DNA of 64,000 nt from Eledone cirrhosa (lineage: Eukaryota), in the NCBI GenBank assembly GCA_964016885.1, contig OZ024743.1, forward strand, positions 195,672,001 to 195,736,000, given 5' to 3'. Each line of letters starts with the position of its first letter. Position 1 is the stretch's first letter. The notes under the pieces are model-generated. The model did not search any database, was not told the DNA's origin, and was given only the letters and a program-made list of their open reading frames with translations. Shown here piece after piece: positions 2,851 through 64,000 of the stretch. Position numbers and translations under genes: made by a program.

Positions 2851-3779
2851 TTTTGCCTACCAAGGCATTTTGTAGTACTGTTTTTAGTTTAAACCTGCTA
2901 TATCGTGTTCACAGCTGTGTATTACCTGAAGCTAGGAATCATCTGTTTTATATTGTGTAGGTATATATGTATATTAGTTTCTCTTTAAGTTTATAATATA
3001 TGTGGAGTTCTAATTGCATTTGAATTCTACGTTCGAATATTTGTGAACCATGAACTCCTTTCTAATAAACATTTTAGCTCTAACTCTATCACTATTTCTC
3101 TTTTTATTTCTTTTCTTGTCTTACTATTTCCCTTAACTGATAATATCATAGGTATATTTTTTATCAGCTATATCTTACTTTTAGAAACTAGTTCAGGATT
3201 AAACGTATTAATCTAATATTCATATCTCTATCTAGATTTTCTGTTCATTCGGATATTTTAAAATACTTTTAATTCTTGTTTCTATGAATTTTGAGGTTTA
3301 TCACTGGTCGAATTCGTTTAAAGCTATTTCATATAATAACATTCTGGTTGAAAAGAGCGGTAGGTCAGAGGTGGTCATAAGTATTTGTTTCTGTTATCAA
3401 TAAATACGTAACTGACGATTATGGGAGAGAAGAGAAGAATTATTAATAAAAGTATCGACCATTTATTATATCGTTTATTACTTCTCGTCGTGAAACAGAA
3501 TGTGACCAGCCTGACCCTTTAAATTAGATGCGCAACTAAAAGGTAATAGTACAAACCACTTCTTGTGTATTACTTAGGGTACTTTCAAAGTAGTAGAAAA
3601 CACACCAAAGTAAAAACAATTTAACGAACCCAAAGCACAAATCTACGTTCAGTAGTGCAATGAAAGCATGCAATAGAAATTAAAACAACTGAAAAATAAA
3701 TTATAATATAAGCACAATAGCACATAATATATTTGGGAGAACTATATTAGAATAAATCAACCTCAATATATAACTGTTA

Positions 3780-3912
3780 CTTATTCTATTGACCTCAGAA
3801 GACTTTAAGACGAAAGTAGCCACGATGGAATTGAAACACAGAACGTAAACTATTGTAATTAAATACCGCAGAAGATATTGGTCATAGTTCTAATGATTCT
3901 GTCTATCCATTT
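3780..3912 (-). mobile_element. Old diverged SINE copy
   Basis: Degenerate match to the reverse complement of the SINE consensus (B-box and GTCGATA regions). Confidence 0.5.
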
Positions 3913-44346: not shown

Positions 44347-47300
44347 CATACATACATACATACATACATACATACATACATACATACATACATACATACA
44401 TACATACATACATACATGATGATGGCTGCCCCCTCGTTATCGAGTATGGCCATTGCACGGCGAGAAAGAAATATTAATAAATAAAGAGAAAAGAAAAAAA
44501 AAAAAGAAATATATATATATATATACATACACATATACATACATATATACACACACACACACATATATATACACACACACATACATTAATAACAATAATA
44601 ATAATAATAATAACAACAATAATAATAACGTCAACAACAATAATAATATACATATACATATATATATACACATACACGCACACACATAAACATATCTATA
44701 CACACACACACACACACGATAGTAACTAACAGCGCTGCGATCGAATGTGGCTTTTTAGCCCAGCCAATGATCTAAAATGTCTTGCACAGAGTCGGCAACC
44801 AAAACATTCACTGGGAATAGTCGGCTGTGGTTGGAGTTCGTGTACTTTTGCATGTCGCTTGAGCCCCCCTGCTGATTTACATTCTCTACCACATGTTTGG
44901 CAAGCATGATGAGTAGCATCTCCAACAGCAGCCTGGTAGTCAAACACTGGTCTTTTTTTATGACTGCGAAGATGACTTTCGAGTCCAGCTTTGCTTAGGC
45001 AGAGTCTCGCACAGACGCTGCATGTCAGCACCATAGGAGGACCCTCGCCGTCTGGAAGTGCAACAGCAATGCCCTTCCTCACATCCCGCTTTACTTTCTC
45101 GTATGCGATTCGAGATACCTCAAAGGCAACTTTTCCCTCATATACAGTCTTTCTCCATTTATTACGATCAGCAGCAATATTTTCCCATGTATCAGCAGAG
45201 ATGTTAGCGTCTTTCAGAGAGGCTTTCAAGGAATACCTCTTTTTTGGTTTATGTGGCGGTCGTTTTCCTTTAACCAACTCTCCATAAAAGAGTTGTTTTG
45301 GTATTCTAGAATCATTCATCCTGGCAATGTGACCACTCCAACGGAGTCGTTGCTTAAGCACAAGAGCTTCTATACTGTCACACATAGAGCTTTCCAAAAT
45401 CTCGACACCACTGATGTGATCCCTCCAGTGAACGCCATGGATCCGTCTGAGACACATCTGATGGAAACGCTTCAATTGCTTAAGGTGATGTCGATATGTG
45501 ACCCAGGTCTCGCAGGCATAAAGAAGACAAGAGAGCACACATGCCCTGTACACATTTACCTTTGTCCTCCTGCATATGTCTCGCCGACCCCAGAGTCGCC
45601 TTTCTAGCTTTCCGAAAGCATCACTTGCTGTATCGATTGACAGTGCTTCCCAGGTAGACAAACTGATCAACCACTCCAAGTCGTTTGCCATACACATAGA
45701 TGTTTGGTTCAGTGTACTGCTTACCAGGGGCAGGATGGTACATGACGACGGTTTTCTTGAGACTGACAGTCAATCCTAGGGCAGTGCAAGCGTCAGAAAA
45801 TGCATTCAAAATATGCTGCATATCACTCTCTGTGTGCGCTACAAGATCGCAATCATCTGCATACAAGAGGTCTCTTATGATTGATGTAAATACTTTTGTC
45901 TTCGCAGAAAAGCGCCTGATGTTAAATATGCTGCCTGAGGTTCGATATCGGATGTAAACACCATGCTCGCAATTCCTGAATGCAATACAGAAAACCATTG
46001 CAAAGTATATGGCAAACAGGGTCGGTGCTGGAATATCCCCATGTTTCACACCATTTTTTACGGAGATAGGCTCCGACATGTTACCTCCGACATTAACCCA
46101 AGCCTACATGTCAACATGGAAAGACCTAACTAAAGCAAGGAACTTATCAGGGCAACCAAGTTTCTGGAGAACCTTCCATAATGCATCTTTGTTAACAGTA
46201 TCGAAAGCTTTTGTCAGATCGACAAAAATCTGATACAGATCCAAGCCTTGTTCCATGCACTTCTCCTGGAGCTGTCTAGCTGAGAAGATAATATCAGTAG
46301 TGCCGCGTCCAGCACGAAAACCAGATTGAGTTTCAGGAAGAACACAATCTGCAATGTGTGTCAGCAGACAGTCCAGAAGCATCCTACATAAAACTTTCCC
46401 TACGACAGAAAGCAATGATATACCTCTGTAGTTCCCACAATCATTCCTGTTACCCTTTCCCTTGTACAAGACCACCATTACTGCATCTCTCCAGTCCTCA
46501 GGTACGGATGCATTAGTCCATATCCTGCCAAACAAAGAGTGAAGATGTTGCAGGAGTCTCTCACCACCATATTGTAGGAGCTCAGCATGTATGCTATCCA
46601 TACCCGGAGATCTTCCACTGTTCAGCTTCGAAATAGCCACTGCAACCTCCACAAGCATCGGAGGTTCTGCGAGAGCTACTTTCACAGGACTTTCTGGAAT
46701 GAGATTGAGGAAATCTTCACTGACGACAGACGGCTGATTCAAAAGATCATCAAAGTGCTCTCGCCACCTTCGTAGAATTCCTTGTGAGTCACGAAGAAGT
46801 TCTTTGCCATCCTTGCTGCGAAGCAGTGTCACCAGAGAAGAAGACGGTCCATAAACCTCACGCAAGAGACTGTACAACAGCTTTGTGTTATTGGAATCTG
46901 ACTCAGTTTGTATCTCACCAGCCTTCTCACTCCACCACTGATCCTTCATCTGAGAAAGACTCCGCCTAACACGTGATTTTACATCCCTGAGTTCCTCATG
47001 CAACGTATTCCTCTCCTGTGGTTTTGCCGTCAAGTAGCGTGACAGAGCACGCCTCTTATCAGCCAACAAGTCTTCTATATGTACATCATTCTCATTAAAC
47101 CAGTCCTAATGTTTTCTCTGCACCGATCCCAGAACACGCCTGCCTACATCATAAACCGACTTTTTAAGGGTCGGCCAATCCTCACCATGATCTGCAGCCT
47201 GCATCTCTTCTTCCAATGTCCTCTTCACATTTTTATCCTTAAGACGAGCAGCATTTAATCTTTTGGGTAGGGCAACACCAGGAGCCCGGATTTTACGTTT

Positions 47301-48584
47301 AGTGATTAGTTTCACTTTTGCGCGTACCAGGCGGTGGTCCGTCCAGCACTCAGCTCCACGAAGAGAACGAACACACTGCACATCCTGTCTGTCACGCATC
47401 CTGACTAGGACGTAGTCCAAAAGATGCCATTCCTTAGATGCAGGATGCATCCATGTGGTCTTGAATTTGTTCTTTTGTTGGAACATGGTTTTGGTAACAC
47501 ACAGATCCAGCTCCTCACACATCTGCAGCAGGAGAATACCATTGTTGTTACACTTTCCCATCCCATGACTTCCGATTACATTCCATGTGTTAAAACCCCT
47601 ACCCACTATAGCATTAAATTCACCAAGCACGATGACTTTGTCTGCCTGAGGCATATTTCTTAAAACACCTTTCAAGGCATGGTAAAAGGACACTTTTTCT
47701 TCATCGACAGAATTCATAGTTGGAGCATACACACTCACCAGGGTCGCATATCTTCCTTTGTCCAGCAGAATTCTCATGGACATAAGACGCTCACTAATCC
47801 CTAATGGGAATTCTTCTAATTTATTTACAAGTACAGTCTTAACAGCAAATCCTACCCCAGCCTCTCTTCTGGTTCCTTCATCTCTTCCTTTCCATGTATA
47901 TTCTCCAAAAAATTCTGTAAGATGACCATCTCCAGCTAACCTCGTCTCAGATAAAGCCACAATGTCAAGATCGTAACGTCGAAGCTCCTTTGCAACAAGA
48001 GCGGTCCTTCGTTCAGGACGCTCCAAGGAATCCCTGTCAAGCAGCGTCCGTACGTTCCAGCAGCCAAGACTAAATGCCTTGTTTGGCTCTATTACAATGG
48101 CACGATAACGAGCGGGCCCAGGCTGTGATAACCTGGGGCCCCCACCCTTATTGCCAATTGTCTTTTTTGTTCCAGAACCTAAATTGCCTATTATCTCTTT
48201 TATATTGTTCTGGAACATCATTGAATTGGAATAAAAATAATAAAAAAATAAAAAAATAATAATAATAGTAATAATAATAGTACACTATTAATAATTATTA
48301 ATGCACTCGTGCAATGCCTGTGCGTGACGAATATTTTTAAAGTGAGGAAAGACTGTGCACTGAGCCAATCCCACTCTCCGAGCGACAGTAGCTATAACCC
48401 GAAAAGAAGAAAAGATCAACATCATCGGTAACTACTGAGCCGCAGGTTTTATGTCGGAGTTAACCCAGTTTCCTGAGATGCCTTCTCCTAGAAGAATGCC
48501 CTGACAAGAGCTAGGGGTTCTTCACTCCCAGTGGTTTAACTGCGCGATCGGGCATCCAGCCCGAGTATTTCTATGTCCCCGCGC
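44347..48584 (-). mobile_element. Near-full-length RTE-clade LINE
   Basis: 5' UTR ~48230-48584, a single APE-RT-ZnF ORF, a microsatellite-containing 3' UTR, a CTCG-ATAA-CGAG stem-loop and an (ATGT)n tail. Confidence 0.93.
44726..48221 (-). pseudogene. RTE ORF: APE endonuclease, reverse transcriptase and three C2H2 zinc fingers, disrupted
   Basis: WNVRTL, RPERRTALVA, ALSETRL, VYAPT, LDYVL, TDHRLV; YRGISLL, FVDLTKAFD, GVKHG, LLYADDC; three Cx2Cx12Hx3H-type motifs (the last imperfect). In-frame TAG at 47106 and 46104; 38-bp deletion near 45630. Confidence 0.93.
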
Positions 48585-50748: not shown

Positions 50749-51457
50749 CTTCATACATATGTGTATACATATCTATATATCTATATATATATATGTGTGT
50801 GTGTGTGTGTATGTGTGTGTAAGTGTGTGTGTGTGTAAGTGTGTGCACGCGCGTGTGTGTACATGTGTGTCTGCGTGTGTGTGTGTGTATAGTTACATTT
50901 ATATATTAGCTGTGGTAGGGGGAGAACTAAAATGTATATATATATATATATAGTTAAAAGAATAGAGGTGTAACACAGAAGTTATTATATATTGGTAAAC
51001 GGAATAGAAAATGCTGACAAATTGTTCACAGTTGAAAAATGGTTTAATTAGGAATAAAAGAGTATTAGTGATTGTATGGGTTAGTATTCAGTTGTGGTTT
51101 TAAGTTTTTAAGTTTTTACCGGTTGCGCTTTTCAAAAATAATTTTGAGATAGAGTGTCCGTGCTGTTTGCTCTGATCTGATTAGTTTTGGGAATTCTACC
51201 TGTTTTTATGTTAAAAAAGTGGCTCCAGCGTTATTTTTGTGTTGCAAAAATGCTTGTGGTCAAAACAATTTTGATTGGTCGGTAGAGGTCATGTGAATGT
51301 ATGAAGTTGATTTTGCGCCAAGACTGTTTTTATGTTAAAAAAGTGGCTCCAGCAAAAATTCTTGGTCAAAACAATTTTGATTGGTCGGTAGAGGTCATGT
51401 GGATAAAAAATTGGTTTTGCGCCAAGATTGAGAAATGACTCTTTCACAACAAATATG

Positions 51458-51564
<107 letters not shown>

Positions 51565-51635
51565 AGTAGTAGTAGTAAGGTGTTCGATGCTGCGACAATG
51601 GCCAGCAGCGATGTGTGTCAAATGGCTATTAAGAT

Positions 51636-51670
<35 letters not shown>

Positions 51671-52140
51671 GCGGAGTCATTCGAAGGTCAAAAGATATTT
51701 TTCAGCTTTTGCCTTATACGGAGAAGTGCGTGTGTGTGTGTGTATAAGTCTCTTTGTATGTTGATGTACGCGTGTGTATGTGTTTGTGTATATATGTGTT
51801 TGTGTGTGTGTGTGTGGGTGGACCAGTATTGTTTTCCCCCTGGTAAAATGGTGTACATTATTCGATTTTTTCAGTAAAATCGGTTCTCTTAATAGAACAT
51901 CAAAAATCTTAACAATAAAAGGTGTGAAATGATATTCACTATATATATATACACACATACATATATTCACTACATATATATATATACATATACATATATA
52001 CGTACATATATATGCCCATATATTTTTTTGTATTGCACCATAGAGCATATGTGTTTACGTGTGTCATTGTGTTTATATGTGGGTAGAGATGTGTGCTGAT
52101 GTAGGTATGTATGTTGACGTGTGTATGTTGTGGGTTCGTC

Positions 52141-54465
52141 TTAGGGAGAAGTGTTTAGACGGGGTCCGTATTTGTTAATGAAGTAAGATTCCTTGCTGAT
52201 GCGCTGGGTGTGGGTGGCATTATCTTTAAGTTTGTAGAGGGGAAAGATTCTGAAGTTGGGATGATTTTGGGCGGCACAGGTATCAATGTGTTCACTTAGT
52301 GGTATTTTCCTGTATTCCCGTATTTTAATTTGGGATCTATGGACAGTCATGCGTTGGCGGAGGCTGTTTTTGGTCTGGCCTATGTATTGTTCTCGACAAC
52401 CTGAACAAGTTAATACATATATTAGATTTTCCGATGCACATGTGAAATTGTGTTTTACTATAAAACCTTGTCCATCTTTGAAATAGAATTCCGAACCCTC
52501 TATTAGGTTGATGCAAATGCTACAGTTGGGTCTATCGCATTTTTTTACTCTGGGTTTCGTTGTTGTGGTTGGCAGTACTTTGGCATGTGTTAAGATGTTT
52601 TTCATTGACTTGGATTGTCTTTTGCTCTTTATGATATCGTGTGTTCGTAGAATTTGGTTCATTCTATAGTCCTTTTTCAATACAGGGATGTTCTGGAGGA
52701 TGGTGTCAAAGGCCTCATTGTTGAGGGGGTTGTGTGTGAAGATGTATGGAAGAGCTTTTAGTTTTGGTTCATTTACTTTACGGTGTCTAAGGTCCTGGGT
52801 ACTGAGTTTTAGGGCACGTTGGATTCCATTGTCAATTAGTGATGCAGGGTAGTCCCTGCCTATGAGTGTGTCCTTTAGTTCTTGTAGCTGTAAGTAGCAG
52901 ATGTTTTTTTTGGAGACTATAGTACAGATTCTCTTGGCTAAGTTGTAGGGAATATTAATTTTAACGTGTCTAGGGTGGCAAGAGTTGAAGGGGAGATATT
53001 GCTTGGAGTCTGTGGGCTTGTAGTATATGTCTGTTTCTATTTTTTTGTTATGGATCTTAATGAGGATGTCGAGGAAGGGGAGTTGTTGATGACTGTATTC
53101 CATCGTGAAGTTAATATTCGTGTTGAACCCATTTATAAGGGTGTGAAATTCTTTAAGTTTTTCGATGTTTTCGTGCCAAAGGATGAAGCAGTCATCTAGA
53201 TATCGCTTCCAGTTCCTTTCAATGTGTAAGTGGAGGGTGTTTCCAAATTTGTTTAGGACTTTAGTGTAGAGGGTGATTTCCAGGTATCCCATGACTAGGT
53301 TGGCATAAGTAGGGGCTGTTTTCGTTCCCATAGCGGTCCCAGATTTCTGCCTGTAGGGTTTGTTATTGAAAACGAAGTAATTGTTCTCCAAGATAAATTT
53401 GAGTCCCTCTATCACGAATTCTTTTTTGATGCGTTGTGGGAGTTCATTGTGGAAATTATCCAGCCAGAATTGGATAGCTTCTATTCCTAGTTTGTGGGGG
53501 ATGTTGGAGTATAGGTTGACTACATCGAACGTCACTAGTAGGGTTTGTTCAGAAAGTGGCATATTAGGGAGGTGATTGAGCATATCTAGGTCGTCCCTTA
53601 TATAGCTTTTGATGTGCTTGAGGAAGGGTTTGAGAAGGGTATCAATGAAGTTGCTAAGACGGTGCGTTTCGCAAGCAGGGCCTGCTATTATAGGCCTTAA
53701 TTTGAGATCATTGGGTGAGGGGACATTGATGACTATGTCTGTGGCTTCCTTGCATGCCTTACTGATTGATTCGCTTTTATGTACTTTAGGGATACCGTAG
53801 AAAAGGCTGGATTTACTTGTGAAGTCTGTGATGAAGCTGAATTCCTTGTTAGTGAGTCCTTCTTTGTATTGGTTGATTAGAGTTTTTAGGTTTCTCATAA
53901 TTTTCTGTTGATTGTAGTGTTCAGCCTTTTCGTAGTATGTTTCGTTTTCCAAAGTGGAGACCGCTAAGTTGATATAGAATTCTGTCTCCATTAGGACTAC
54001 TGTACTCCCTTTATCAGCCTCTTTAATTGTAATGGTTCTGTCGGTTTTTAATCTATTTAATTCTTCCCATTCTTTCTTGTTGAGGTTAGGCTTGTGTTTT
54101 TGTCTGTGCAAGTGTTGGTAAGGGAAGTTTGTGATGTGTTCACAGAATTCGTCCAGGATTTTATTTCTACCTTTTGAAGGGGTGTAATTGCTTCTATTTC
54201 TGGCTAATGATTCATCCTCATTGTACTGGTCGAATAGTTGTTCACTATGTCGTAACTTTCTACAGAAGTCTGTGAGGTCTTCCTTCATTTCATAGTAGTT
54301 AGGACGTAGTGGGGTCGGTGTGAATTTAAGACCTTTGGAGAGTAAGTTGATAAGGTTGGGTGTTGGTTCTGCACTAGTAAGATTGATAATTTTTATTACT
54401 ATCGGTTTCTCCTCCCTGTCTTGTGTTATTTTGTTTGCCTGTATCTGTGTGCTGTGTCTAAAAAA
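52141..54465 (-). CDS. PLE reverse transcriptase plus GIY-YIG endonuclease (frame open upstream of the first ATG at 54288)
   Basis: IINLT..LLSKGLKFTPTP lies upstream of the Met; ADKG, FYGIPKVHK, LRPII, FDVVNLYSNIP, GTAMG, RYLDD, FLD, YYKPTD; NLIYVLTC..C..QYIGQT..LRQRM..H. No internal stops. Confidence 0.92.
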   Translation of the reverse strand, partial: FFRHSTQIQANKITQDREEKPIVIKIINLTSAEPTPNLINLLSKGLKFTPTPLRPNYYEMKEDLTDFCRKLRHSEQLFDQYNEDESLARNRSNYTPSKGRNKILDEFCEHITNFPYQHLHRQKHKPNLNKKEWEELNRLKTDRTITIKEADKGSTVVLMETEFYINLAVSTLENETYYEKAEHYNQQKIMRNLKTLINQYKEGLTNKEFSFITDFTSKSSLFYGIPKVHKSESISKACKEATDIVINVPSPNDLKLRPIIAGPACETHRLSNFIDTLLKPFLKHIKSYIRDDLDMLNHLPNMPLSEQTLLVTFDVVNLYSNIPHKLGIEAIQFWLDNFHNELPQRIKKEFVIEGLKFILENNYFVFNNKPYRQKSGTAMGTKTAPTYANLVMGYLEITLYTKVLNKFGNTLHLHIERNWKRYLDDCFILWHENIEKLKEFHTLINGFNTNINFTMEYSHQQLPFLDILIKIHNKKIETDIYYKPTDSKQYLPFNSCHPRHVKINIPYNLAKRICTIVSKKNICYLQLQELKDTLIGRDYPASLIDNGIQRALKLSTQDLRHRKVNEPKLKALPYIFTHNPLNNEAFDTILQNIPVLKKDYRMNQILRTHDIIKSKRQSKSMKNILTHAKVLPTTTTKPRVKKCDRPNCSICINLIEGSEFYFKDGQGFIVKHNFTCASENLIYVLTCSGCREQYIGQTKNSLRQRMTVHRSQIKIREYRKIPLSEHIDTCAAQNHPNFRIFPLYKLKDNATHTQRISKESYFINKYGPRLNTSP

Positions 54466-55684
54466 TGGTTGGGGTAGAGGGGTTGTCTGCTGATGTTAAG
54501 TGGTCTCCTGTGTTTGTTATATTCCTTGTTGTTGTAAAATGTGGTTCGGGTTGGTGGTTGTAGATTGAATGGGGTGTTCCTGTACTGCGAGTATGGGTGT
54601 GTGTTTCTATGTGCCATGTTGTATTGTGGTGTTATAAGTGGCCTACGTTGTTGGTTGTATCGAGTGGTGTGGGTTTGTTGTGTATTGTGGAAGTGGGAGT
54701 TGAGAAAATGGTAATTACCTTGCTGTCCCCTTGAAGCGGGGAAGTTGTTGCATCTATCATGGCGGTGGTATCTTTTCCCTATGTTTGACGATGAGGAATC
54801 CGCGTAGTGGTTGAGTGATTTGGTATGGTGTCTCCTTGAAGGGGGAAAGTTGTAAATGTCATTCTGGGGGAGATGATTTCTTGGGTTTTTGTTCCTTCTT
54901 ATGGTAGCGAGGTTGGGAAGTTCATCTTCGGTGTGGTGCTTCCTTCTTCGTTTGTTTGAGTCTTGGGGGTTTGAGAAGTTGTTGTGCGGTTCAGTTATGG
55001 GTTTTCCTATTTTTATGAACGGGTTATTGGAGGTGTAATCCGTTTGAAAAGTCGATTCATAGTGTAGGAACCAAGCGGCACTTTTTTCCCAGCGTTGAAG
55101 GGATTTCAGTTCTTCTCTGTTGCAGTCCCCTTTCCATAATTTGGAGATCTTCTCTACCTTGGGGCCTTCAGTTTTGTTGTTGATTTCCAGGAGGATCTCT
55201 TCATCGATGGTTTTGATTTTTTCCTCATTTGTCTGGGCCCTCAGTTTAAGAAGTTCAATTTCTGTCTTCATTTTTTCCAATGCCATTCTTTCCCTAAGGT
55301 GTCTTTGAGGTTCGGGTTCATTTGGAATGGACTTTATTTGTAGTTTACGGGGGAGAGTTAGAGGGGTTGAGTTAAGCCATTTTTCATATATCTCTGCTTT
55401 GTCGTGATTTTGTATCATCTTCCAGAATGAGAACTTTCTGTCTCTGAGGGATTTGTTCCATTTTGGAATTGTTCGAATTTTCATTTTGTGTGAATCAATC
55501 TCACATGGTTCTTCGTTGGTTTTTCCTGGGTTGGTAGTAGTGAACATAGTTTGGATAGTATCGCAAAGGTTTTGGAGTTTGTCGCCGATTTCGGAGGGTT
55601 TGTATCCGGTGGCGGTTTCCTTATTTGTGGAGTCAAGTTTGTCGACCAGCAAAGATAGGTTGGTGTTGATTTTCTTGAGTTCCT
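54426..55684 (-). CDS. PLE upstream ORF (helical/coiled-coil N-terminal part, low-complexity C-terminal part), 5'-truncated
   Basis: An intact ORF of 408+ aa overlaps the RT frame; K/E-rich heptad-like segment ERMALEKMKTEIELLKLR. Confidence 0.75.
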
Positions 55685-56394
55685 GTAAAACACAATTTCA
55701 CATGTGCATCGGAAAATCTAATATATGTATTCACTTGTTCAGGTTGTTGAGAACAATACATAGGCCAGACCAAAAACAGCCTCCGCCAACGCATGACTGT
55801 CCATAGATCCCAAATAAAAATACGGGAATACAGGAAAATACCACTAAGTGAACACATTGATACCTGTTCCGCCCAAAATCATCCCAACTTCAGAATCTTT
55901 CCCCTCTACAAATTTAAAGATAATGCCACCCACACCCAGCGCATCAGCAAGGAATCTTACTTCATTAACAAATACGGACCCCGTCTAAACACTTCTCCCT
56001 AAGACGAACCCACAACATACACACGTCAACATACATACCTACATCAGCACACATCTCTACCCACATATAAACACAATGACACACGTAAACACACATGCTC
56101 TATGGTGCAATACAAAAAAATATATGTGCATATATATGTATGTATATATGTATATGTATATATATATATGTAGTGAATATATGTATGTGTGTATATATAT
56201 ATAGTGAATATCATTTCACACCTTTTATTGTTAAGATTTTTGATGTTCTATTAAGAGAACCGATTTTACTGAAAAAATCGAATAATGTACACCATTTTAC
56301 CAGGGGGAAAAAAATACTGGTCCACCCACACACACACACAAACACATATATACACAAACACATACACACGCGTACATCAACATACAAAGAGACT

Positions 56395-56425
<31 letters not shown>

Positions 56426-56493
56426 TTCTCCGTATAAGACAAAAGCTAAAAAATATCTTTTGACCTTCGAATGACTCCGCTATATACACACAC

Positions 56494-56549
<56 letters not shown>

Positions 56550-57136
56550 ATCTTAATAGCCATTTGACACACATCGCTGCTGGCCATTGTCGCAGCATCG
56601 AACACCTTACTACTACTACTACACACACACACACACACACATATATATACACACACACACATATTTGTTGTGAAAGAGTCATTTCTCAATCTTGGCACAA
56701 AACCAATTTTTTATCCACATGACCTCTACCGACCAATCAAAATTGTTTTGACCAAGAATTTTTGCTGGAGCCACTTTTTTAACATAAAAACAGTCTTGGC
56801 GCAAAATCAACTTTATACATTCACATGACCTCTACCGACCAATCAAAATTGTTTTGACCACAAGCATTTTTGCAACACAAAAATAACGCTGGAGCCACTT
56901 TTTTAACATAAAAACAGGTAGAATTCCCAAAACTAATCAGATCAGAGCAAACAGCACGGACACTCTATCTCAAAATTATTTTTGAAAAGCATTTAGAAAT
57001 GCGCAACCGGTAAAAACTTAAAAACTTAAAACCACAACTGAATACTAACCCATACAATCACTAATACTCTTTTATTCCTAATTAAACCATTTTTCAACTG
57101 TGAACAATTTGTCAGCATTTTCTATTCCGTTTACCA

Positions 57137-57137
<1 letters not shown>
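55685..57137 (+). repeat. Inverted pseudo-LTR of the PLE (GIY-YIG C-terminus plus 3' UTR)
   Basis: Reverse complement of 50992-52458, differing in a few SNPs, microsatellite lengths and one 12-bp indel. Confidence 0.95.
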
Positions 57138-57203
<66 letters not shown>

Positions 57204-59103: not shown

Positions 59104-59533
59104 AATGCTATGGTTGACGGAGGCTCGGCTCTGTAAGGTATTGTAAATTTTGAACGCTATAACAATTGTAAATTGTTTAAAACTTTAACGAACTTGTAGA
59201 CAAAAACACCCTCCTCCTCGTGAGAGGGGTCTTTCTGCCCGTTATTTGGCCCTTCGGGGTTAAATAACTGCTTATTGTGGTTTTGTGCCCAATATTTATT
59301 TTAAACAAAACAAACAACATGGTTACGAAAAAGAATTTTCATAGGTCACTCCCACTCATTCCGTCTTCTTCTTCCTCAATCATCACTACAGCAGAGAGAA
59401 GATTGTCTCTCTCCCTCCCTTCTTTAAATGTGTCTCTCTCCCTCCCTTCTCTTTCGCAAGCGACGAAAGAAAAGAAAAGTCTCGTGCAAAGCGTGCAAGA
59501 TTTCTCCACGACGACGACGACAACGACGAAAAA

Positions 59534-61429
59534 GTGTGCGGGAAATACGAAAACCCACTTCATTCGTCTGACGTCAGGAATAATAGCAGTAGCAGCCGTA
59601 ATAACAACAGCAACAGTGACAATGAAAACAACAGTAGCAGCCGCAACAGTAACACCAGCAGCATAAACAACAACAGCATTAGCAGCAGCAACACCAACAA
59701 CAACCACAGCAACAGCGGCGGAGGCAGTAGTCGTAGTACCTGCAGCAACAACAAAAGTAACAGCAGCTCTGACGACAACAACAACAACAGCGGCAAAGAA
59801 AAACCAATCTCATTTGCAGGTATCGCGAAGAACCTGGAAACAATCCTCATAACAAATGAGGAATTAGAGGAAGCGAAGAAGATGGTGACAAAAACAGGAC
59901 ACCGAGCAATCTTCAAGGCAGCGGAAAAATTTTTCGAAACCCAACAGCACTGTACGGTCACGTACCGTACAGTAAGTACAAAATCCCGTAGGGTGGAAAG
60001 AGCCACAGAGGCTCAAATACAAAAAGCCTTGGGGTCTGTGTGGCAGCGGAAAACATACATCACCCGAGGCAAGAAATATGCCACCGTAGACGTACTTTTT
60101 GACACACCCCAGGAGGCAAAGGCTCAATCCGTAGTGACCCTAAGGAGCGAGGAAATGGTGTTGGTGCCCTCCTACTGCGGGCAAAAATTTGTGAGGGTCA
60201 AACTGACCCACGTCCCCCCCCCCCCCGGGATGGCCCCTTCTTGGCTGGCCGCGTCTGTCCTCGTCGGAATCGAGGACAAAACAACTGTACTGCAAGTACA
60301 GATAAAAAGTAAGAGAAGATTGGGTCGGCATCTCCATTTAGATGTTAATCCAAACCAACCAGGAGTGCATCGAAGCTATCCCGGATGTGATAGACTTCGA
60401 TAACGGCACTCAACTGCCCATAAGTGTTGAGGGCAAACGCCCGAAATGCTTTCGCTGTGGATCGAAGACTCACCTCAGGGCCTTCTGCAACGAGAAGACC
60501 CTGAGAAAGGAGAAAACCCCCTCCTTCCGAAACCGGCTCCACGGCTACCAGCAACAGGACAAGCGGCAACCAGGAACGATAGGTCCATGGCACCCATACC
60601 CACGCCACGGAAATCAAAAACAGCAGCAGCAGTGGAAGTATTAACAACAACAACAACAGCAATACCAAATGCAGCTGCAACAGAGACTCCAGTGCAAACA
60701 TCACCAACAATAACAAGTGAAAGAGTGGAGCTGGTACCCCTCCCCGACCTCACAGAATCAGACATGGAGTGTGAGGTGGGAGAGGGATGGCAAAAGGTCG
60801 TAAGAAGGCACAAACGCAGAAGCAGCGCATCGTCGCCTTTGAAAAGGGAGGAAAGAAATGAAAAAAGGGTAATGTCTACTGCAAAGAGACTCACAGCAGC
60901 AACACCACCAACACCATCACCACCCACACTAGCACCACCATCACCACCGGCGACAACCCCACCGCCAACAACACCTTCAACACCACCACCACAAGCACCA
61001 ACATCGCAAACACAACAACAAAACACACACACCCAGGAACAACGAAAAGAAAATAGCAGAACCACACCCCACCCCAAGAAAAACAAATGTACGGCAATAA
61101 ATACACACAACAAGAAACTAATGACTTACATAATTGAACACACAGACATTTCACAACACTACTACATAATACCAGCACCAATCAAAACGCCAACTAACAT
61201 AAGACTGCTAAAAATAGCACAGAAACAATACACAAACATTAAAACGAAATTCCCCAACGCAGTTGGTGATTTCAAGGACCTAGGAGGAACTATCAATCGA
61301 AGAGTATATTCGGACATACTCATAGAAGAGACGACGACCAGCCGAAGGGACGATTCAACGGTCCCTTCACCAGACGATCAATTGAAAAGGGATGTAAAAA
61401 CCATCCCTCCTCTACGAAAAGTACGGTAA
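59534..61429 (+). pseudogene. LINE ORF1 (gag-like, CCHC zinc knuckle), frameshifted
   Basis: KPISFAGIA, then RPKCFRCGSKTHLRAFC in a different frame (60342-60644), then GWQKVVRR and a Pro/Thr-rich tail. Frameshifts near 60.31 and 60.51 kb. Confidence 0.8.
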
Positions 61430-61465
61430 AATAGTCTTTCCCATCTTTTCCACTCTATTTTAAAC

Positions 61466-64000
61466 ATGACCTCCCTCAGAATAGGCAGCATAAATGCGCG
61501 TGGCTTGGGGTCGTCATGGAAGCAGGGTCACCTGCTCAACGACCTCAGGTCACTAAACATAGATGTAGTGGCCATCAGCGAGACCAGAATCTCCGAAGCA
61601 CGGGCCTTCGCACCGATCTTCGGCGGCTACGATGTGTACGCATCTCCCAGCCGGCCTGGATCGGGGGGAGGAGTTGCTGTGCTTTTTCGGAGAGGTTTGG
61701 ATCTCGCCATACGGGCCATCTTCCTGGACCCAGAGGGTAAGCTAGTGGTGCTGGACGTGACCAGCGGAGACGGGCAAGCTTGCAGGCTAGTGGCAGTCTA
61801 TGCCCCGACAGGAGCAGGGCGGCCTGATTTCTTCCGGCATCTGGAGACCTTTCTTGGAACGTCCCGCTCTTTAGTGTTAGTGGGTGACTGGAATGGGATC
61901 TTAGATGCACGCTGGGACTGTGTGGGATTAGCGGATAGGGGTGGAGGGTGCAAGAGCCTCACCAACCTGCTCAGGCGTTTTGAACTGTCTGACAGGTACC
62001 GATTGGATTTCCCGAATGTGCCAATGTGGACTTGGACAAATCGCATAGGGTCATCCAGATCATATCTAGATAGAGTATTTTGTAGGGAAATAGATAGGTC
62101 TAGCATAGGGTGTCCACAATTCAAGATAGTCAGCTACACGGACCACAAATTCGTGATCTGTGTGCTTGACTTAGATAGGCTTCATAGACGAGGACCCGGC
62201 TACTGGAAGCTAAACGCGTCCTTACCAGCGCGCAAGGCCTACAGAGACCGGATTAGCGATCTAGTTAGGCGGGCGTTGACGGGGGCCATCGTCAAAAACA
62301 AGTGGTGGTTTGCTCTGAAAAGAGCGATTAGAATAGAATCCATTAGGTTTAGTAAGGCTTTAGCAATAGAGAAAAATAGAGCAGAGGGAGAACTAGTTAG
62401 AAAATTAGACGAGGCGCTTAGCAAAGGCATTGCGACCGACGTGCTTGCGGCGAAATTGGCCCTTGACCAATTCTTCAATGCAAAGAACGAAGGCTGCGTT
62501 GTCAGAGCAAGGGTGCGTGCTCTCAGACACGAGGGGACGAAAGCCGTTCAATGGGCCCGAGTGGCGGAGGTGCGTCGTGGCAACAAAGCCATGATCCGGT
62601 CTTTGGTGGACCACGGCGGGCGCATGCTACTGGATCCCGGGAAAATGTGTGAAGCTTTTCAGCGACACCTCGCTCAGCTGTTCGGGGGCAGCGGTGGGCC
62701 GCGTCGAGGGATGGACTATAGTGTCTACCTCGACGGACTTCCGCGGCTCTCGGCCATGACTGGCTGCACAAGGGGTAATCGCCTGGTTGGGGTGGTCTGC
62801 CCTATGAACTTTACGTACAGATGCCAGACTTGTTCGGAGGCCTCTTGGCGGACGTCTACTGCAACTGGCAACAGAACGGGAGAATTCCCAGTTCTGTGAG
62901 CCGAGGAGCGGTGGCACTGCTGAGAAAGGATCCGAACAAGGGGGATAACATAGATAATTTCCGGCCCATAACTCTGCTAAACACAGATTTCAAGATTTTG
63001 GCCAAGGTGCTAGCAAAGAGGTTGGCGCTTGTCGTTGGTGGTCTGGTAGGAGAGGCGCAGACATGCGCCATTCCCGACAGATCCATCCACGACAACCTCC
63101 ACCTCATGCGATACATCGTAGAGAGGGTAGCTAGGGAACCTGGCACGGGTGGGTCCTTGATCAATTTAGATCAGTCGAAAGCTTTCGATAGGGTCGACCA
63201 TCGTTACCTAGCGGCAGTCCTGAGGGCGGCTGGCTTTGGGCCCGTCTTCAGAGGCTGGATCGCTGCCATGCACAGCAACATCTGCTCTGTGGCGAGAGTG
63301 AACGCTCACCTGTCGGAACCATTCAACATCATGGGCTCGGTCCGCCAAGGATGTCCCCTCTCGTCCCTCTTGTACGTATTGACTCTCGAGCCATTACTGC
63401 ACAAACTGGAGACGTTGAGGGGCATACCGCGCGAACTAGGATGCGGAAGATCCGTGTCAGCATATGCGGACGATGTCACCGTAGTGGTGTCGAACGCCAA
63501 ACACATCGAGGCGATCGGCACCACACTAAGAGAATACGAAGCGGTGACAGGAGCAATGATCAACCAGGAAAAGTCAGTGGGCCTGCAGCTCGGCACCTGG
63601 AGAGGGAGGTCCATGCCGTCCAACAGCGTCGTCGGACGCTGGACGGACGGACCGGTTAAATTGCTAGGGGTCTGGTTCGGTCCGGACCTCCAGACGGACA
63701 AAAACTGGGACGAGGTGACGAGCAGGGTGGCTTCTCTCACCCAGAAATGGGCGGAGAGGAAGCTATCCCTGAAAGGTCGAGCGGAGGTGGCTAACGCGTA
63801 CATCGCGTCTGTCATCTGCTACCGCCTGACCGTCGTACCTTGTCCTAAGCCTCGCCTGACTGCGCTGGAGCGTTTGCTCTTTCGCTTTTTGTGGAAGGGA
63901 CACGCTCCGATGGTCAGGCGGTCCATCTGTTGTCAACACCCGTTACGTGGAGGGCTGGGCATGCCGTGGCTGGTGATGCGCAGGCACGCGCTCAGGCTAC
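61466..64000 (+). pseudogene. LINE ORF2: APE endonuclease and reverse transcriptase, frameshift near 62.78 kb
   Basis: SINARGL, AISETR, VYAP, VGDWN, SYLDR, TDHK, GYWKLN; after the shift, FRPITLLNTDFKILAK, LDQSKAFDRVDH, VRQGCPLS and AYADDVT. Confidence 0.92.

Follow-up and report, generated by a model that had tools for sequence, protein, structure and literature searches.

In this study, we analyzed a stretch of 64,000 nucleotides (nt) from the Eledone cirrhosa genome (assembly GCA_964016885.1, contig OZ024743.1, forward-strand positions 195,672,001 to 195,736,000), hereafter called the window, whose own positions are used throughout. On its minus strand, between (TA)n stretches, lies a copy of a Penelope-like element (PLE) with inverted pseudo-long terminal repeats (pLTRs), which contains two overlapping open reading frames (ORFs), ORF1 and ORF2 (50952..57143; the left end was placed by eye, where a short tail matches the sequence upstream of ORF1 in full copies). 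The two frames are very probably joined by programmed -1 tandem slippage on the heptamer U_UUU_UUA, which would give a fusion of the ORF1 protein with a reverse transcriptase (RT) and an endonuclease (EN).

ORF2 (52141..54495, minus strand) runs for 784 codons from stop to stop in the -1 frame. As the earlier annotation from the letters alone (the sequence-only reading) had proposed, its first ATG, at 54288, lies downstream of the conserved PLE N-terminal motif IINL...GLKFTPTP (54310..54390), which close ORF2 relatives also keep, and its RT and GIY-YIG content was recovered by domain matches: RVT_1 at 53113..53703 (E 1.5e-7), as well as, at the C-terminus, a GIY-YIG endonuclease with a CCHH motif at 52156..52425 (E 1.5e-6). 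A zinc-finger-like CX4CX2C linker of the Neptune/Nematis type, as this motif is defined in PMC8557442, was located by sequence at 52513..52539, and the 3' pLTR occupies 50986..52458, both on the minus strand. The copy combines features of endonuclease-bearing (EN+) PLEs, namely a PLE-type RT with a GxKF motif, a C-terminal GIY-YIG domain with CCHH, and inverted pLTRs.

The ORF1 frame is open on the minus strand over 55697..54426, and its coding part (54426..55688) belongs to no Pfam family. In full-length copies (L003, L006, L014 and others) ORF1 encodes 436 amino acids (aa) from an ATG. The first 16 codons are missing from the window copy at the join with an inverted pLTR (55685..57143, plus strand), a copy of the 3' end that includes the end of the GIY-YIG frame (arms I1-I3 and I5 at 96-99%). 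Since this repeat takes the place of the ORF1 5' end, the window copy is probably not an expression-competent source; the earlier statement that both ORFs are otherwise intact fails for ORF1.

A coiled-coil ORF1 product had been suggested, and the predicted model agreed, with long helices and coiled coil over residues 8-233 (predicted local distance difference test above 90 for about 81-240) followed by a predicted disordered tail rich in N, R and Q. Comparison with the PDB returned only generic coiled coils by sequence (best E 0.0018) and generic helical matches by fold, below the noise level of helical bundles (best Z 8.9, root-mean-square deviation 5.3, 142 residues aligned). There were 559 ORF1 relatives at E<=0.001 (clusters at 50% identity), the longest among the best 150 of them reaching at most 473 aa; no Pfam family was common to 95 members, the Atlas gave no ORF1 match, and the ORF1 profile had no match in the long N-termini of single-ORF PLE loci. 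It is likely that the ORF1 protein acts as an RNA-packaging or oligomerising partner.

Within the overlap, ORF1 reads CAT TTT TTA GAC, which places T_TTT_TTA (54465-54459, minus strand) in XXX_YYY_Z phase as a Phe-Leu pair, with ORF2 open in the -1 frame from 54495; all of this is as first read. An in-phase X_XXY_YYZ heptamer inside an ORF overlap is the first part of a canonical -1 site. The heptamer is followed by exactly 10 sense codons, that is, a 30-nt unstructured spacer (54429..54458) whose length is conserved and whose sequence is not, and then by the ORF1 stop UAA and CA (54424..54428), a candidate pause site for a leading ribosome. It is the sole run of at least five Ts in the 3,557-nt sense strand of both ORFs.

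The junction across genomic copies and divergent families

First, the genome was searched with a pattern of exact flanks and a free middle run, which found 392 copies. T6A was present in 355 of them and T7 in five; among the remaining 32, those listed had T5 or substitutions. All of the 30 best genomic matches, which were chosen by similarity and are 97-99% identical, had T6A, and a second family of this genome, family B, had T6 in 30/30 copies. The copies are dispersed over many contigs. The heptamer is thus conserved across copies, and a seven-T single ORF, the outcome that would have spoken against the earlier reading, was not seen in intact form: the five T7 copies were truncated or broken otherwise, with no intact full-length single ORF within the examined stretch.

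Fused long ORFs do occur in family A, to which the window copy belongs (1183 aa, L247), in family C (1181, 1157 and 1138 aa) and in family E (1289 aa), which would fit either an assembly error or a single-ORF element that lost one base in this copy or in its source. However, the traced fused copies carry differing private indels (T7, an insertion 17 nt upstream, C-runs of varied length, an A8 run), and therefore no fused lineage has been amplified; in each family it is the two-frame form that has multiplied. Refuted by 355 of the 392 copies and by 14 families, a broken single ORF has a practically negligible chance of being the explanation. The natural single-frame ORF1-ORF2 copies (L066, L067, L068 and L083 in family C, L221/L241 in E and L247 in A) mostly owe their single frame to homopolymers of altered length within the overlap or close to it, and some of them may be long-read assembly errors. 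A search for longer fused ORF2 relatives gave five proteins with 25-32% identity, mostly joined to unrelated host domains.

Second, we compared 14 families with readable junction DNA, five from this genome (A-E) and nine from other samples (L086, L087, L088, L092, L093, L094/L091, L095, L097 and L167). ORF2 identity was about 56% in families B and C, about 41% in E, and 31-50% in the outside families where ORF2 is whole. All 14 families have the heptamer in phase (T6A in 11, T6G in three) with ORF2 open in the -1 frame from it. In L086 and L095 the contig ends within the upstream frame, which has no match to the ORF1 profile. The outside families came from a screen of 132 loci, most of which were distant single-ORF PLEs or too short; a scan of viral contigs found no relatives, and searches of the own genome with P0001, P0154 and P0161 returned only the known families, as judged by places and frame lengths. 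The relatives that have names come from bins of bivalve symbionts and from other marine bins, most likely as host DNA. Many eukaryotic PLEs among L086-L217 were found within bacterial bins (GTDB genomes and symbiont metagenome-assembled genomes), where they are most likely contamination by host DNA.

These comparative results favored the -1 frameshift reading, and they bear on three other ways of joining or separating the frames. RNA polymerase slippage on the T run could add one U and fuse the frames, and both the homopolymer and the existence of T5 and T7 copies would suit it. Such slippage takes no account of codon phase, which nevertheless agrees in 14/14 families, and the run is only six Ts long, so that this explanation appears very improbable. 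Splicing is hardly more probable. It would use TTTTTTAG as an acceptor, with a spliced RNA joining an upstream exon to ORF2; a pyrimidine run plus AG is present in 9/14 families, and introns are described for PLEs in the text of PMC8557442. However, the AG is missing in the other five (D, L088, L095, L097 and L167), and splicing there can therefore not be the general rule. In addition, both donor-like sites (scoring at least 7/9) in the ORF1 of the window copy are in phase 1 while the acceptor would be in phase 2, which leaves no in-frame join, and splicing would not fix the ORF1 codon phase.

Finally, ORF2 might have a start of its own, reached through leaky scanning or reinitiation or supplied by a near-cognate codon close to the ORF1 stop, with the heptamer secondary. 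In family C an ORF2-frame AUG does lie 10 codons after the heptamer, GUG (B), CUG (L086) and AUA (A) occupy the same place, and many database ORF2 calls begin with Met just ahead of IINLS, although GTG or TTG starts may be written as Met. Nevertheless, family C is the only one of the 14 in which an AUG precedes the IINL motif (the ORF2 Met of two further families is inside or behind it), and an own start would leave unexplained why every family has the heptamer in phase and ORF2 open back to it. We regard this route as unlikely. The standing of the heptamer as the sole T run, as the majority state of the copies and as an in-phase feature of all families confirmed, at the level of sequence, that it is more than chance.

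A quick RT tree with 46 rows grouped the 12 two-ORF rows into one clade (Shimodaira-Hasegawa-like approximate likelihood ratio test support 100) together with six fragments that do not reach the junction (L089, L096, L166, L168, L169 and L171), and single-ORF PLEs, including linker-bearing ones, lay outside it.

Spacing between the slip site and the ORF1 stop

The heptamer is also visible at the protein level. Among 74 ORF1 relatives of at least 330 aa, 61 have Phe-Leu within the final 45 residues; the two windows before these gave counts of 4 and 3, and 1000 shuffles a mean of 6.5 (maximum 16). On sequence grounds, the tail Phe-Leu is the heptamer as seen in translation. A few of the exceptions instead have Asn-Phe or Asp-Phe and then 10 residues, which would suit other XXX_YYY_Z heptamers. 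We also observed x-Phe instead of Phe-Leu in P0142, P0206, P0169, P0192 and P0187, followed by 10, 10, 12, 12 and 25 residues, respectively; these five endings probably correspond to other slippery heptamers with similar spacing.

Spacing was measured in 85 ORF1 relatives with a tail of at least 70 aa behind the core, 65 of which have Phe-Leu. The distance from Phe-Leu to the stop is never below 10 codons in these 65; it is exactly 10 in 22 and 11 in four. With relatedness ignored, no stop falls in the 650 codon slots before position 10, compared with 0.081 stops per codon beyond it. The 10-residue tails share on average one identity in 10, and core identity is 21-61% (median 35%). In the unfiltered set, 92/162 relatives have the tail Phe-Leu, and the two distances below 10 (P0230, P0249) belong to short proteins that the core-plus-70-aa filter dropped. 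The 10-codon spacer was also found in 5/14 DNA families, among them A, L088 and L093, whereas B-E have spacers of 19-31 codons. Because the distance from the slip site to the GLKF motif ranges over 38-86 codons in these five while the spacer stays fixed, the stop appears anchored to the slip site itself. The stop is followed by CA in four of the five, and in the fifth one copy has UAG-C and another UAG-A; a stop with C as its next base is a weak context for termination.

Among relatives with longer spacers, codon 11 is often Trp (8/63 unfiltered, 5/43 filtered), mostly in one lineage; a Trp codon can be one step from a stop. At the DNA level, families C (L070), B (L040) and L086 have TGG at codon 11, where the 10-codon families have the stop, and this TGG places an AUG (C), GUG (B) or CUG (L086) with a +4 G in the ORF2 frame. 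The ORF1 relatives P0002, P0128 and P0139 show a D-T-R/G-W motif at the same site, which might offer ribosomes another way into ORF2 or serve as a different pause. A spacer periodicity at 20 and 30 codons was considered and is not claimed: in B, C, E and L167 the stop lies at or beside the ORF2 KIIN codons, and the periodicity can therefore be a by-product.

Candidate stimulators of the probable frameshift

A canonical -1 site is defined by a stem-loop or pseudoknot 5-9 nt 3' of the heptamer as well as by the heptamer itself. Such a fold was seen neither in the window nor as a conserved feature. The absence of a strong downstream hairpin, already remarked on from the letters, held up (minimum free energy 0.0 kcal/mol over the 40 nt after the heptamer); among 11 families compared with shuffles only L086 folds better, and a stem scan of 13 families, made without a dedicated pseudoknot predictor, found no shared stem. 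In L086 a stem of 7 bp begins 2 nt past the heptamer (z -2.4 to -3.8), and in L093 there is one of 6 bp. The sequence-only reading had left the stimulator unnamed; it was right about the missing fold, and it overlooked that the ORF1 stop lies at a fixed distance of 10 codons, a spacing that makes the best stimulator candidate.

This distance matches the spacing of collided 80S ribosomes, and stop-codon collision is therefore proposed as the stimulator. In engineered E. coli reporters, where a slow stop was set 5-11 codons past a slippery heptad, trailing ribosomes shift to -1 most strongly at 9 codons (8 without bL9), with an effect of about 2-fold (Smith et al., 2019; PMC6815119). Yeast disomes pile up at stop codons with footprints of 58 and 61 nt, the 61-nt form becoming 58 nt by one more step of the follower (PMC7784341). 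By our own arithmetic, these footprints correspond to a ribosome spacing of 30 and 33 nt.

Under the proposed mechanism, most ribosomes would finish at the ORF1 stop and yield the helical ORF1 protein, and in a minority tRNA-Phe and tRNA-Leu would move back by one base and pair again, so that translation continues through RT-GIY-YIG. A leading ribosome held up by slow termination on UAA-C would lie 33 nt downstream of a follower that has the Leu codon in its A site. The step of this follower from 33 to 30 nt would be the last before full collision, so that it may stall during translocation over the slippery pair. The terminating ribosome would in this way substitute for the missing pseudoknot. 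That collision with a ribosome terminating at the ORF1 stop is the natural stimulator in families like A is a tentative proposal, somewhat short of an even chance. In SARS-CoV-2 the stop position acts via pseudoknot refolding instead (PMC8168617).

About even, by our estimate, are the chances of an alternative that concerns the stimulator only: the same -1 frameshift, driven by basal U6A slippage or by something else (the nascent peptide, RNA upstream, a bound protein, for instance ORF1 itself, or family-specific hairpins), with the 10-codon spacing inherited or otherwise kept. Two thirds of the relatives have longer spacers, stems follow the heptamer in L086 and L093, and the 30 residues ahead of Phe-Leu are N/R/Q-rich; moreover, Gly directly follows Phe-Leu in 26/43 longer-spacer versus 3/22 10-codon relatives, which hints at G-rich elements. 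On the other hand, such stimulators leave unexplained why there are no stops before codon 10 and why one third of the relatives stop exactly there with unrelated tails, and no fold is common to the 11-13 families tested.

Several observations weigh against collision, and some of them against the frameshift itself. The spacer exceeds 10 codons in 43/65 relatives and in 9/14 DNA families, including B-E; therefore the collision geometry cannot be required. The 10-codon state is clustered in one large part of the ORF1 tree, so that the counts are not independent, and a degraded copy related to family E (L226) stops one codon after Phe-Leu. The tail Phe-Leu is missing in 20/85 relatives, the heptamer ends in G in 3/14 families, which is atypical for eukaryotic -1 sites, and the window copy itself has no ORF1 start. 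Furthermore, eukaryotic collisions are said (Simms 2019) to be better known for +1 shifts. The E. coli effect is about 2-fold and comes from engineered reporters (PMC6815119).

Relation to known elements and implications

By motif, the element is an EN+ PLE of the Neptune/Nematis type; the 46 rows of the RT tree included no named Neptune/Nematis reference proteins. It shares with such elements, as described in PMC8557442, the RT, the CX2-5CxxC linker, the C-terminal GIY-YIG with CCHH, the inverted pLTRs, the (TA)n flanks and the GxKF N-terminal motif, and its EN region is, by eye, laid out like the Neptune/Naiad rows of the published Fig. S2. In contrast, those elements are described there as single-ORF, whereas here a separate ORF1 of 340-470 aa overlaps ORF2 in -1. 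PLEs are described as having either one ORF with EN or two ORFs without it (PMC6431247). The two overlapping frames found here in 355/392 copies and 14/14 families therefore depart from the canonical single-ORF EN+ layout.

Frameshifts in PLEs are not new in kind. According to the legend of Fig. 1 in PMC8557442, which names no clade, a frameshift accompanied by a pseudoknot can set ORF1 apart; the available part of its supplement mentions frameshift or ORF1 for Chlamys rows only. The elements of that legend share with ours an ORF1 with coiled coil upstream of the PLE RT and joined to it by frameshift, whereas no pseudoknot or conserved fold was seen here. We take them to be Athena/Terminons. 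Athena elements differ in lacking an endonuclease and being telomeric, whereas here GIY-YIG is present and copies are dispersed over contigs. HIV-1 gag-pol has the same U_UUU_UUA heptamer and phase, and the same logic of a structural protein plus enzymes, but our site has no stem-loop, tolerates a final G and has its 0-frame stop at least 10 codons away. With the engineered E. coli system (PMC6815119) it shares a slippery heptad, an unstructured spacer, a stop one ribosome-length downstream and the way in which spacer codons are counted. That system is artificial and bacterial, with a 9-codon peak and an effect of about 2-fold; the present one is natural and eukaryotic, with 10 codons, and is judged from conservation only.

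Our literature search, which left Repbase and figures outside its scope so that a prior mention is possible, found no description of the two-ORF clade's frameshift, its clade-wide ORF1, a fold-free site or a fixed stop spacing; the collision-driven mechanism appeared in engineered E. coli reporters only, with no natural stop-collision stimulator. The available portions of PMC3846280, PMC5408684, PMC5718144, PMC6515669, PMC10294476, PMC8915115, PMC5009743, PMC7544508, PMC13388722 and bioRxiv 10.64898/2026.07.22.740005 contained nothing on the two-ORF clade.

Regarding other features, a hammerhead ribozyme motif near the 3' end is a further mark of EN+ PLEs; none was found in the window by Rfam, which returned microsatellite noise only, or by pattern search. 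Minimal hammerhead-like motifs are present, at the pattern level, in the relatives L087 (58-100 plus 3757-3800, a tandem arrangement) and L088 (4102-4145), and the pattern that matches them has no match in the window's family. The window also contains two long interspersed nuclear elements (LINEs). One (44726-48284, minus strand) has an AP-endonuclease, an RT and C-terminal C2H2 zinc fingers, and is broken by stops. In the other (59345-64000, plus strand), low-complexity ORF1-like frames precede an AP-endonuclease (61430-62899) and an RT (62779-end) that lie in overlapping, different frames.

EN+ PLEs have been described as single-ORF elements, and here a whole clade has a separate conserved ORF1 and a probable gag-pol-like switch, both of which would be missed by annotations that begin at the first ORF2 Met. 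In its broadest form, our proposal is that a widespread, unannotated clade of two-ORF EN+ PLEs uses a natural collision-driven -1 frameshift, in which the ORF1 stop, one 80S ribosome-length (10 codons) past U_UUU_UUA/G, holds a terminating ribosome that blocks the next one in place of a pseudoknot, and RT output is tied to ribosome load; we offer this tentatively, as a possibility rather below even odds. Frameshifting of the -1 type is thought to need a downstream RNA fold or a bound protein. If the proposal is true, the fold-free cassette of about 45 nt (the heptamer plus a 10-codon distance to the stop) would give an example from nature in which a ribosome serves as stimulator, and it suggests a simple pattern for genome-wide searches: heptamer, 30 nt, stop.

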